From Octopus vulgaris (taxonomy: Eukaryota), in the NCBI GenBank assembly GCA_951406725.2, contig OX597831.1:38440001-38504000 (forward strand): a stretch of 64,000 nt of DNA, written 5' to 3'. A model generated the notes under the pieces. The model worked only from the letters and a program-made list of their open reading frames with translations. It had not been told where the DNA came from and ran no database searches. How positions within the stretch are numbered: position 1 is the stretch's first letter; each line of letters begins with the position of its first letter. Shown piece after piece: positions 22,315 to 45,770 of the stretch. Position numbers and translations under genes: made by a program.

Positions 22315-22726
22315 ATATATAATATTAATTAGAGACAAAACCACTATTATGCAAATCAAACAAAGAAAGACTTAATCCAATACATAAAAAAATTTTATAT
22401 AAATTAAATGAAATTAAATTCGCCACTACAATTGTTTCGTGTCTCTTCCAAGGACATTCATCAGGTGGTATTCAGATCTTCTATTCAATTTTAAGTTATG
22501 AAGTCCTGATGAATGTCCTTAGAAGAGACACGAAACAATTGTAGTGGCGAATTTAATTTTATTTAATTTATATAAAATTTTTATGTATTGGATTAAGTCT
22601 TTCTTTGTTTGATTTGCATAATAGTGGTTTTGTCTCTAATTAATATTATATAATATTTTACTATAAAATTGGATTCAGTCCTAAATCTGATTTTTCCCTA
22701 TAAATTTGGATTTATTCCCTAATATT

Positions 22727-36565: not shown

Positions 36566-37127
36566 GTTGTCCGGAAAATTCGTGCCGATTTATAGTAGCT
36601 TACATTTCGACTTATTTTAGAACATGGTTGAGTCCATAAAATAGGATTTGACTACACCTCCATTTAGAGCACAGTTTAAGCTATCTTTTCGTGGAAGAAG
36701 GTTTATGTTCCTATAACATATGTTAATTTTGTAACCCTTTAAATTGGAAGTTAAGAAATTTCATTTTCGGCAATTGATGTTTTGGGAACCAGACAAAAAT
36801 TGCTGCAGCTCGGCTGGGATGTGTTACCCCAACCTCCATATTCATCACATATTGCTCCTTCGGATTTCCTCTTATTCAGGTATCTGCAGAATAGTCTTAA
36901 AGGTAAAAATTTAAATTCCTTGGATGACGTAAAAAGATACCATAATGAATATTTTGCCATGAAACTACCTCAATTCTGGGAAGAGGGTATTTTCAAGTTA
37001 CAGGAAAGATGGAGACGCATTGTGCGACAAAATGGTTCATATTTGGTTTACTAAAAATGTAATGGCAAGTATTCATTGACCTTTTTCTTACCTTTAAAAA
37101 TCGGCACGAACTTTACGGACAACCCAA
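36562..37127 (+). mobile_element. Internally deleted mariner, same family as 6639-7173 (566 bp)
   Basis: Same TIRs and TA TSD. ORF RQKLLQLGWDVLPQPPYSSHIAPSDFLLF...ERWRRIV..NGSY. Confidence 0.95.
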
Positions 37128-38251: not shown

Positions 38252-38984
<733 letters not shown>

Positions 38985-40173: not shown

Positions 40174-40739
40174 TGTACATATATAATTATAAATAAGGGC
40201 GCTGGAGGGAGAACGCCAATACGATAGAATAAGATGTCAAATATCTACAAACGACTCTTAATTTGTTCTCTTTTTTACACAAGGCTGAATGCGAAGAAAT
40301 TGACAAGAAGAAATGTCATAGATCTTGTCCATTTCCTCGCATTCGGCCTCTTCAGTTTCATTCATTCTCAAATGCTTGTACAGTGCTTTATTACACACAT
40401 GTGAGTGAGAACACTTTGAGATATTTTTGGTATCTAACATATGTCAGATACTGCGAGCGCTGCTTCTGATTGGTCAATCCATGGTGATGACCCGAGGTCA
40501 CGGTGACGGCACCACTTTTGTCATTCATAAGTTACAACTAAACTTTCACGAGCCGGTAGAATGTAGCCATGTAATTCAACAAACATACTATCTTTTTTAT
40601 ACCAGATATCATTTAAAGTTATATACACATAAAATATAAACATTTCTGGTCGTAATTCAATTTTTTGTTGCCAAAAAAATCACAACATATATCGTCTGCT
40701 CGTCGATACTCTTGCAGTGCAGGTAGATCTATCAAGAAG

Positions 40740-42278
40740 ATGGCTAATGTTATCGATATCAAGGTGAATGATTTTGTTAAGATTGATGGTAAAGATGGGG
40801 GAAGAGTATTATCCGTTGTTCAACCTCTTGGAACATACAGAATGTTCAATGTGAAGATAAATACTGGCCAAGTTCGACATGTTGCTGGATACAGGTTAAC
40901 AAAGGTACCTGAAACAGTGTCATCGACGAGTGGATTGTCATCGAACCCTGCATTTAACATCCCTGATGAGGTGTACAATGATCTTCTTCGTGACGATTTC
41001 TTTGATGATAGCCATAATGATCTTGAATTTCAACCGAGGTATGATCATTCTGGAATAGATAAATTCGTTCAAGGTAATCAAAATAAAAACACTCTTCGGA
41101 AAACAAACTATGATGTTAAACGATTGTTTGCTTTCATAGCGACAAATGGCGACACGCGTCCAACTGAATCTATCGACAAAGGCGAAGTTTGTGACATTCT
41201 CTGTGCTTTCTTTATATCGTTACGAAGGCCGGACGGTAGCAACTATGAACATTCATCTTTGAGGGGAATGTTATCCAGTATTGAAAGATATCTGAAGTCA
41301 AAACACTACTCGACGTCACTATTCTCGGACGGGACATTCGTGAAACTACATGACGTACTAAAAACGAAGCAAATGCTGTTGAAAAGTTAAGGAATGGGAA
41401 ACCTCCCTCGAGGCGCGGAATCTCTCTCCGACGATGATATCAACAAGCTATAGGAATGTGACCAGCTCGGTCCGAACACACCTGAATCCATCCTCAACAC
41501 GCTATGGTGGAACAACACCGTTCACTTTGGTATCCGGAGTGTCAAACCTCACAACGACATGCGATGGGGCGACGTTTCTTTGCATGTTGACAATGAAGGC
41601 AAGGAATTCCTTCAGTTTAGGGAGCGAGAGTCCAAAACTTGTCAAGGTGATAATCTCGACCATGCACGTAACATCTAGCCAAAAGTATGGGCGACGAATG
41701 ATGAGCGTTGTCCAGTTAACCTGTACAAGCGTTTTGCTGATCTGAGACCATCAGATTATTTATCGCCGGATTCACCATTTTATTTGGCCACCAACTGCAA
41801 AGATGCCTCCCATTCTCATCCCTGGTTTAAACGTCAACCGGTCGGTGTCAACAAACTAGGTACAATTATGAAAAGGGTGGCTAAATCAGCTGGTTTGGAC
41901 AATCGAAGATTCACGAACCATTCAGCACGCAAATACCTTGTGCAGAAGCTCGCTGACCAGAACACTCCTCCAACTGAAATCATGCAGATATCTGGACATC
42001 GTAATGTGCAAAGCATCAATAGTTACAGCAATATTTCCCTGGATCGTCATCGTGCCATCAGTAACATCCTTAGTAGCAACAACGACCAGCCGGGTTCGCT
42101 TGTACCTCCGTCACACACAGCAGCAGCGAGTGCAAGTGAACTCCCTTCCACCGTCAACGTTACGTCGAGTCAATCTCGGAACGCTGTCACTTGCTTTGGT
42201 TCATTGCACTCCATTTTCTCGGTTCCAATATTTGGGGAAACAATCAATTTGAACTTCTTTGGCTCAGATGCAAAGTGA
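40740..42278 (+). pseudogene. DUF3504-type tyrosine recombinase (CryptonA; related to KCTD1/ZMYM/QRICH1 domains) with three in-frame stops
   Basis: Single frame of 513 codons: NKNTLRKT...LCAFFISLRRPDGSNYEHSSL...SIERYL...LGPNTPESI..TLWWNN..HFGIR...ER.SKT.QG...RCPV.LY...WF..QPVGVNKL...TNHSARK...IMQISGHRNVQSINSY. R-K-HxxR-H-Y catalytic residues are present. Stops TAA 41388, TAG 41451, TAG 41676. Confidence 0.9.
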
Positions 42279-42642
42279 CCTCGTCTCACAGATAATGAGG
42301 ACTGTTAAGTTTTCCTGGACTATTGTGCTCTACTCTGACTGACATTGCTGCTCGAAAACATGTTTGAGTATTATTAAAGTTATTGAAGATTCAATCTGTT
42401 ATGTATTTCTTGAACGTGAACTTGAATGTTAACAAAATGTTAAATAGTCATCAGTTATCAGTCATTTCACCTGAAAACTTAGCGCTATAAAGTCGGACTA
42501 TCTTCCTGCGGCATGACATCTTTTAAAGTAACACATTGTGACGTCACTGACGTGAAATCAAGCTGTATTCATGCGCGCTTCAACATGATGTGAAGAATTT
42601 AATTATTAGATTAATAAAATATGGTCGTTTATTCGTGTGTAA

Positions 42643-42802
42643 TAAATAAAATACCAAACTCATTCCCTATGGATACCGTATTTATTACAACTCGTGGCTT
42701 GTAAACGTATCTAACTCGCTTTCGTTCGTTAGATACGTTTACAAGCCACTCGTTGTAATAAATACGGTATCCATAGGGAACTCGTTTAGTATTCTCTATT
42801 TA
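42643..42802. repeat. ~160-bp terminal palindrome of the Crypton
   Basis: Core arms 42663-~42716 and ~42726-42780 pair perfectly except at symmetric TC/TC bubbles inside ACTCG-type motifs. Confidence 0.95.
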
Positions 42803-43565
42803 TCGTTGCAATTCTTTCCTACCGAAGCCTGGCCTTCTTACTTCCAATAAAAGCGGTTCTGTGGCATTTTTTACATACCATGTATGTTGTTTTCCTCTGC
42901 TCTAATGCAGTGTTCGCATCGAATCAGTCCTCTTATCCCGCTTTTTCTTGGTACATATAGTCTGTCCGAGTCATTATTTGGGTGGAGTGACCCATATGAA
43001 GTCAACAACTCCCTCGTCATTCTGTCTTAGCTGTTTAGTTCCTCTACTGTCCATGCGATTACCCCTGCTCCATATCCAAGGAGTGAAACCGCCCCGGACT
43101 TGATTGCTTCAATCTTACTTCTTCCGTTTAATTTCGACTTTAGGATCCGTCTCAGTGTGCGAAGTACTCCTCCTTAAAATTTTCTGTCATTTCTTTCTCC
43201 ATGAATTTATCCATTTCTAATACTTCCAAGTACTTATAGACCGTCTCTTCTATCTGCTTCATAACCTTCCCCGGCGGTATCGCTAGAGAGTTGATACATT
43301 TGATTTTACTTCTCTTCAAGTCTAACACACCACACCTTTTCAGTCCGAACTCCTTTCTGATATCAGCACTCAAAGTTTACACCGTATCAACGAGAGAACC
43401 GACTTGGGATTCATCTTTACCATAAAATTTGAGGTCCTCCACTTCGCCATATTTTTTCCAAGCAGTCGCTCAACATTCGATGCAATACCAAATAGGTTCA
43501 TAAATTCCATAATTCAAGAATGTGGGATCACATCGTACGCCTTACGATAATCAAAACCCAGAGAC
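42803..43565 (-). mobile_element. Degenerate R4/Dong reverse-transcriptase fragment
   Basis: DYRKAYDVIPHS...DLKFYGKDE...EFGLKRCGVL...YKYLEVLE...ILKSKLNGR.KI.AI...LHP..D.DRLYVPR..G.RGL. Its upstream side abuts (TTA)n. Confidence 0.8.
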
Positions 43566-45479: not shown

Positions 45480-45770
45480 TTGTTGTATACTGTCAACTTA
45501 ACGTGACAGTCCCGTAAAGGGAATCACACCACTGCTATTTAGCCCTAGGAAGCATCGACGCTTCCTGTCGGCCTTGACACATTTCCTGTGTCCTTATATC
45601 TACGAAGGGGAGACAAACACCCCCAACAGTTAGGCCTGCATCTAGAGACATGCATGTTTCTGTGTCTTCAGCCAGCAGGTCATGCTACTCTGGACTGATG
45701 ATGCGCAAGACTCAGAAACATGCATGTCTCTAGATGCAAGCCTAGCTGTTGGGGGTGCTTATCTCCCCTT
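45480..45770. mobile_element. Short fold-back PLE-type element with a hairpin-rich extension
   Basis: 64-bp inverted arms (45605-45668 and 45707-45770), a hammerhead, and four small hairpins at 45490-45592. Confidence 0.75.
45690..45733 (+). ncRNA. Minimal type I hammerhead ribozyme (44 nt)
   Basis: CTGGA CTGATGA TGCG-CAAGA-CTCA GAAAC ATGCAT GTC TCTAG: stem I 5 bp with one G.U pair, palindromic ATGCAT loop, GUC triplet. Confidence 0.85.

Follow-up and report, generated by a model that had tools for sequence, protein, structure and literature searches.

In a 64,000-nucleotide stretch of the Octopus vulgaris genome (contig OX597831.1, positions 38,440,001 to 38,504,000; hereafter the window), a long palindrome was found to form the right end of what is, judging from its sequence, an element of a known transposon kind, CryptonA. 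The palindrome gives this kind of transposon a new end structure, which is conserved and comes with a testable single-strand mechanism. We observed that the hairpin is terminal, that its bubbles, tips and length are conserved, that its foot copies the joined element ends and that a relative inserts without target duplication. On balance, we lean towards the notion that the antisense strand of the hairpin is a folded single-strand substrate of the recombinase, with an attC-like function and a DIRS-like splint for the ends. The features are listed in Table 1.

Table 1. Coordinates, in the window, of the CryptonA element, its hairpin and the adjoining host DNA
Feature	Position	Strand	Remarks
Complete CryptonA element, 2412 bp	40388..42799	+	Empty-site joints, loose ends, register with ends of relatives
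Left end, 12 nt complementary to hairpin foot	40387..40398	+	Begins TTTAT
Small left-end palindrome	40430..40451	.	Arm GTATCTAAC equals arm below long-hairpin tip; read from sequence
Tyrosine recombinase open reading frame, DUF3504/phage integrase	40740..42278	+	Single frame, three premature stops; R-H-R-H-Y residues present
Right segment retained in internally deleted non-autonomous derivatives	42591..42799	+	Joined to about 40543
Hairpin foot, inverted internal copy of right-end/left-end junction (splint like an internal complementary region)	42635..42654	-
Long terminal hairpin	42642..42799	-	Axis 42721/42722; axis to element end 78 nt
Outer bubble, left TC	42660..42661	+	Partner 42782-42783; minus strand GA/GA
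Middle bubble, left TC	42692..42693	+	Partner 42750-42751; minus strand GA/GA
Hairpin tip	42716..42727	-	Third GA/GA pair; GCGAAAGC-type mini-hairpin cap in family majority; window copy differs at 42725
Middle bubble, right TC	42750..42751	+	Partner 42692-42693
Outer bubble, right TC	42782..42783	+	Partner 42660-42661
Right end (..CTCTAT)	42790..42799	+	Two bases longer than paired foot strand; adjoins joint
Host flank, high-copy repeat split by element	42800..43560	-	Depth and joints; LINE (long interspersed element)-like by eye; no Pfam match

A bubbled hairpin ends the element

The palindrome had been noticed in a first-pass annotation, and its existence was confirmed. All pairs share a single axis, with paired coordinates summing to 85443, and the perfect arms comprise 29 bp (42663-42691/42752-42780) and 22 bp (42694-42715/42728-42749). 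None of 200 shuffled sequences folded as well on either strand (z-scores of -19.2 for the minus and -18.4 for the plus strand). ViennaRNA energies were nearly alike between the strands (-61.4 versus -58.0) and were not used to argue for a strand bias. Neither the arm nor the tip has a second copy in the window. The arms had been described as complementary except where TC faces TC. Three such mirror sites are indeed present, namely the outer and middle bubbles and 42716-7/42726-7 in the tip, but the outer bubble also contains an A/C mismatch (42662/42781) and the tip of the window copy a G/T mismatch (42718/42725). In the contigs of all four sequencing runs, position 42725 is C in approximately 100% of the depth, so that a two-pair stem is closed above the third bubble. 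The six direct-orientation motifs of the annotation were found at the positions given there (ACTC at 42658, 42690, 42714, 42748 and 42780; TTCG at 42725). Their 32-24-10-24-32 spacing is present as well but provides no separate evidence, since six motifs that form three mirror TC/TC pairs are mirrored in spacing by arithmetic.

The extent of the element was read from the run contigs. In all four runs, which carry four organism labels, we observed the empty site, with 40390/40391 joined to 42812-42836, and loose contig ends behind 40391; the insertion site is a high-copy repeat. Loose ends behind 40543 carry on as 42591 sequence, again in all four runs. The empty-site joints and these left-right deletion joints are those of dispersed mobile copies with non-autonomous derivatives. 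Contig depth, which is not a copy number, was 80 to 260 times higher over the hairpin than over the open reading frame, as expected if short derivatives with both ends are common. Just inside the retained right segment, two adjoining words resembling the cAMP response element (TGACGTCA and TGACGTG) were seen at 42538-42553. Shorter palindromes beside a CCAAT-type word were seen at left ends, at 40430-40475 in the window and upstream of the reading frame in L014, L015, L016, L053 and L069.

The sole gene of the element encodes a DUF3504-type tyrosine recombinase, with profile matches to PF12012 (E 3.4e-10) and PF00589 (E 9e-9) and, weakly, to QRICH1. H394, R397, H420 and Y429 were invariant and R266 nearly so in 42 relatives, and the same motifs occur in the window copy. 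In contrast to domesticated DUF3504 genes, the full R-H-R-(H)-Y set is thus present. An intact relative with the source label Octopus sinensis was 96% identical over the searched part. The predicted fold was Cre-like and no nearer to IntI than to Cre, in a fold search without power to choose among mechanisms. Neither reading frames for reverse transcriptase/RNase H or GAG nor inverted long terminal repeats were detected within 40388-42799, and no relatives of the recombinase were found in viral contigs.

On the antisense strand, the TC/TC bubbles read GA/GA. According to the accessible text of the papers cited here and below, Y-GA-R is the context of stable DNA blocks built from two stacked sheared G-A pairs (PMC10085684), and GCGNAGC and GCGAAAGC are very stable DNA mini-hairpins, the latter melting at 76.5 C as DNA and at 39 C as RNA (PMC13037366). 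The majority tip of the window's family is GCGAAAGC. Among the minus-strand tips of 28 hairpins, we observed GC-GNA-GC in 12, a flipped form in 3, G-GTA-C in 3 and none of these in 10. The antisense strand would fold to a nearly continuous helix, and the coding strand would keep open TC/TC loops, stacked at the tip. The GA/GA context and the mini-hairpin tips therefore speak for a DNA hairpin formed by one strand rather than for a cruciform or a structure in RNA. The two-strand cruciform of the annotation is accordingly disfavoured, the bubbles being predicted to stabilise one strand only, on the basis of the available text of PMC10085684 and PMC13037366. No Rfam family matched at its gathering score, the best being mir-983 (25.2 bits versus 100, E 0.78).

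Conservation of bubbles, tips and length

We fetched 85 loci with related recombinases, the metagenome part being the best 80 of 339 matches. Two weak prokaryotic integrase hits (L008, L009) were excluded, and 32 of the remaining 83 loci, with less than 600 nt downstream, were left out; the other 51 and the window made up the 52 loci examined. A long hairpin was present in 32 of the 52. L006, L035, L043 and L075 passed the hairpin score through other inverted repeats; they are included in the loop count below and stand outside the 28 hairpins used for tips and ends.

The 32 hairpins contained 79 two-by-two loops, 52 of which were TC/TC on the coding strand and 5 GA/GA, for a chance expectation of about 0.9% (0.009 per loop). 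All 57 lie in a pyrimidine-nn-purine (Y-nn-R) context, with CG/CG, CG/TA or TA/CG closings. Representatives of clusters at 70% identity gave 9 loops of this type out of 12, and 8 other palindromes gave none. The five GA/GA loops come from three loci in which the inner part is flipped. In L012, L027 and L067, the inner hairpin is flipped relative to the outer one, with GA/GA on the coding strand, which may be an assembly artefact or a real flip-flop.

The annotation had stated that fully paired arms or randomly placed mismatches in other copies would refute its reading; neither was seen in 14 of the 15 hairpin clusters (80% identity), which contain two to four mirror pairs. The annotation correctly took the bubbles to be directional and not random, and to belong to a terminal structure linked to a Crypton recombinase. 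The number of bubbles (2-4) and their spacing vary among families. The hairpin of L011 is 58% identical to that of the window (protein 41%), and its bubbles lie 61, 30 and 6 nt from the axis versus 62, 30 and 6. The distance from axis to end was 73-81 nt in 21 of 24 anchored ends; the right-end anchors of L020, L028 and L044 look misplaced by the search pattern. In G001, a bin whose contigs resemble animal host DNA, hairpins were located by a tip pattern that fixes two mirror pairs, and all 15 had at least one further pair.

Several observations weigh against conservation. The hairpin was not found in 20 of the 52 loci, 10 of them with at least 1200 nt downstream; 5 of these 10 are one family. 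L070 has no bubbles, the middle bubble is paired in L067 and L082, and many sampled loci come from few related families. In a recombinase tree built by a quick method from the fetched loci only, with a midpoint root, hairpins fell on both sides of the root; 156 of 500 label shuffles scored equally low, so that the hairpin label shows no clustering and the tree is uninformative on co-evolution.

Further observations were made on the sampled loci. L038, L040, L050, L052, L066 and L075 form a near-identical recombinase family without a bubbled hairpin, and their 3' flanks are interrupted by other insertions, one with GCGAAGC-rich ends. L005, L006, L007 and L090-L127 (CBDDTI records) are prokaryote bins with animal-type Crypton elements; the CBDDTI bin holds many copies and resembles host DNA, and L007, located on a 439-kb contig labelled Nitrospirales, carries a full hairpin. 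Dispersed palindromic repeats of haloarchaea (L092, L093, L095-L098, L102, L107, L114 and other Halorubrum loci) are rich in GC and contain the tip module of the Crypton hairpin, with TC/TC pairs stacked around a TNC loop, on different arms. Mobile repeats may thus share this module as a cap for single-strand DNA. When viral and prokaryote contigs were scanned for the tip motif, four loci without long arms were returned and judged unrelated. The window itself also contains, at 38379-38774, an unrelated inverted repeat of 172 bp (97%) that encloses a 27-bp hairpin, resembles a miniature inverted-repeat transposable element and has no TC/TC loops; similar repeats are at 22388-22582 and 45605-45770. 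A fragment resembling, by eye, the end of a mariner transposase is at 36755-37054, with no Pfam match.

The hairpin foot copies the joined ends

The first 12 bases of the element recur in reverse complement at 42635-42646, immediately left of the hairpin and next to the stretch with which the right end pairs. Read in inverted orientation, the foot is thus a copy of the right end followed directly by the left end. A modelled junction of the ends lengthened the stem across the joint and gained approximately 10 kcal/mol, more than with any of 200 random flanks. In relatives, foot and left end match over 16-29 nt, and the matching stretch differs between families along with the left end. The foot matched its own left end better than 200 of 200 shuffles in 11 of 20 testable loci, 10 of which also beat all other families; the other 9 failed the test, among them the window copy with its short match. 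Pairing is imperfect in the 8-10 pairs immediately inside the joint, with two extra bases on the junction strand of the window copy.

Insertion was followed in G001, which contains seven complete copies of a non-autonomous family (501-511 bp, 95-99.6% identical, 24-nt foot match). All seven have fixed ends and unrelated flanks, none shows a target duplication, and joining the ends gained 17-27 kcal/mol in 7 of 7, more than all 200 random flanks. This argues that no homologous core of 6-8 bp was used. A T precedes the left end in 7 of 9 insertions, and the last base of the right end is also T, a one-base micro-homology.

These insertions bear on the classical double-strand Crypton cycle, in which a double-strand circle is excised at short direct repeats and the hairpin and foot are accessory duplex sites or an origin or priming signal, served by the bubbles. 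The 4-6 bp direct repeats of the fungal Crypton model do have a counterpart in the window, where TTTAT is found at both edges (the first 5 nt of the left end and 42799-42803). Such a repeat is absent from 7 of 7 G001 copies, so the window's 5 bp are probably a target that happens to resemble the left end. The double-strand cycle is consistent with Chlamydomonas CryptonF, for which the available text describes donor/target matching and clean excisions, yet rising copy number (10.1101/2022.05.23.493040), and with mini-hairpins at phage and plasmid priming sites (PMC13037366). However, all 9 insertions have the same start of the left end (the left motif being part of the query) versus eight different pentamers beyond the right end, neither duplication nor homologous core is present in G001, and the in-register identity of the foot with the joined ends is left unexplained. 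Coupling sequences as in Tn916 may apply to the G001 copies. Overall, we consider the double-strand cycle unlikely.

A proposed single-strand mechanism and its meaning

We consider it an evenly balanced question whether animal CryptonA elements transpose as folded single-strand DNA, with G-A blocks and mini-hairpin choosing the strand, a splint and one strand exchange. In the cycle that we favour for the hairpin of the window, the antisense strand would become single-stranded, probably at the replication fork, and then fold, its bubbles closing as sheared tandem G-A pairs and its tip as a DNA mini-hairpin. The foot would pair with both element ends, keeping them side by side. One strand exchange by the recombinase would then give a single-strand circle with its junction in the duplex stem, and a reversal of this exchange, with a weakly specified AT-rich sequence as target and replication to resolve it, would insert a copy. 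The bubbles would act as strand selectors and shape marks, not as crossover points.

Similar arrangements are known from other tyrosine recombinases. Like integron attC (PMC5027507) and CTX phage attP (PMC9345347), as described in their accessible text, the Crypton site combines a tyrosine recombinase with an imperfect hairpin whose shape is conserved above its sequence, imperfect pairing beside the joint and crossover micro-homology only; its conserved unpaired features differ between the strands. In attC, the strand is chosen by shape and micro-homology is sufficient (PMC5027507). The conserved attC AAC/GTT core was not found at the Crypton joint, which reads ..CTAT then TTATT... attC has extrahelical bases and the AAC triplet, whereas the window element has symmetric GA/GA loops and a mini-hairpin cap, and its full site forms only once both ends meet on the foot. 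The bacterial SE-6283 and SE-6945 also use tyrosine recombinases and circularise one specific strand, but they have four genes and terminal imperfect inverted repeats, and their authors found no attC-like hairpin (PMC9345347). The internal complementary region of DIRS-1, likewise a tyrosine-recombinase element, is a stretch near the right end complementary to both ends in junction order (PMC7192593). In the Cryptons, the left-end match is 12-29 nt versus 33 in DIRS-1, the right-end half is part of a long hairpin, and reverse transcriptase, GAG and inverted long terminal repeats are lacking. The Crypton hairpin therefore functions like attC at most and is neither an attC site nor a DIRS element.

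The DIRS comparison also suggests an RNA route, in which a transcript is copied in trans by a reverse transcriptase and the antisense cDNA folds, its foot restoring and joining the ends. A reverse transcriptase copying the sense transcript would produce the strand that folds, and DIRS-1 forms antisense single-strand cDNA, requires its internal complementary region and works in trans, according to the available text (PMC7192593). The Crypton has no reverse transcriptase, and 12-29 nt of left-end match would not suffice to restore a promoter region that had been lost, which makes this route decidedly improbable. The proposal of the annotation, six direct-orientation recombinase binding or crossover sites in a two-strand cruciform, fares slightly worse, and we doubt it strongly. 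Each bubble and its flanks do resemble a recombinase site in miniature, being a tiny palindrome that is interrupted by an asymmetric centre, and the positions are conserved. Nevertheless, the motifs have only 4-6 bases in common, vary among CTCG, CTCA and TTCG together with their partner across the axis, and differ in number and spacing among families. Moreover, insertion joints map to the element ends (42799/42800 in the window, at least 17 bases from the closest bubble), and stacked TC/TC loops at the tip should impede sense-strand folding. Finally, since long perfect palindromes are unstable in genomes, the bubbles might merely interrupt one against nucleases, fork stalling or RNA silencing; this is the least credible explanation, because any mismatch would suffice, yet 57 of 79 loops are of one type, context and polarity, and other long palindromes nearby persist without such bubbles.

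Eulor entries are described as self-complementary in repeat databases. The window element resembles animal CryptonA as described in the accessible text of PMC3212892, PMC13465315 and PMC5753468, with a single DUF3504-type tyrosine recombinase, an intact catalytic set, an animal host, plentiful internally deleted derivatives and no terminal inverted repeats proper. The 78-bp hairpin, GA/GA blocks and joined-end foot were not found in those descriptions. Kojima and Jurka (2011) reported no terminal repeats in animal Cryptons, with 'n.d.' in two supplement rows (PMC3212892), Glomhoppers had none detectable (PMC13465315), and salmon Crypton-N and Eulor5/6 have similar termini (PMC5753468). No account of GA/GA blocks, cap or splint was found in the literature covered, which did not include Repbase, Dfam, subscription papers, figures or bioRxiv supplements, and these may describe the palindrome.

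The finding bears on how animal Cryptons find their ends and multiply. The hairpin supplies an end rule: the axis plus about 78 nt gives the right end, and the inverted foot gives the left end. It also offers a concrete substrate for an intact recombinase such as P0001, and may be relevant to the kinds of DNA that domesticated DUF3504 proteins (QRICH1, ZMYM) prefer. If the single-strand mechanism is true, folded single-strand tyrosine recombination would reach eukaryotes, as a counterpart of integron and CTX recombination. Sheared tandem G-A pairs would then have a conserved genomic role, the DIRS internal complementary region would have a counterpart in a DNA transposon, and animal cells would harbour a native, single-protein, structure-guided DNA insertion system.
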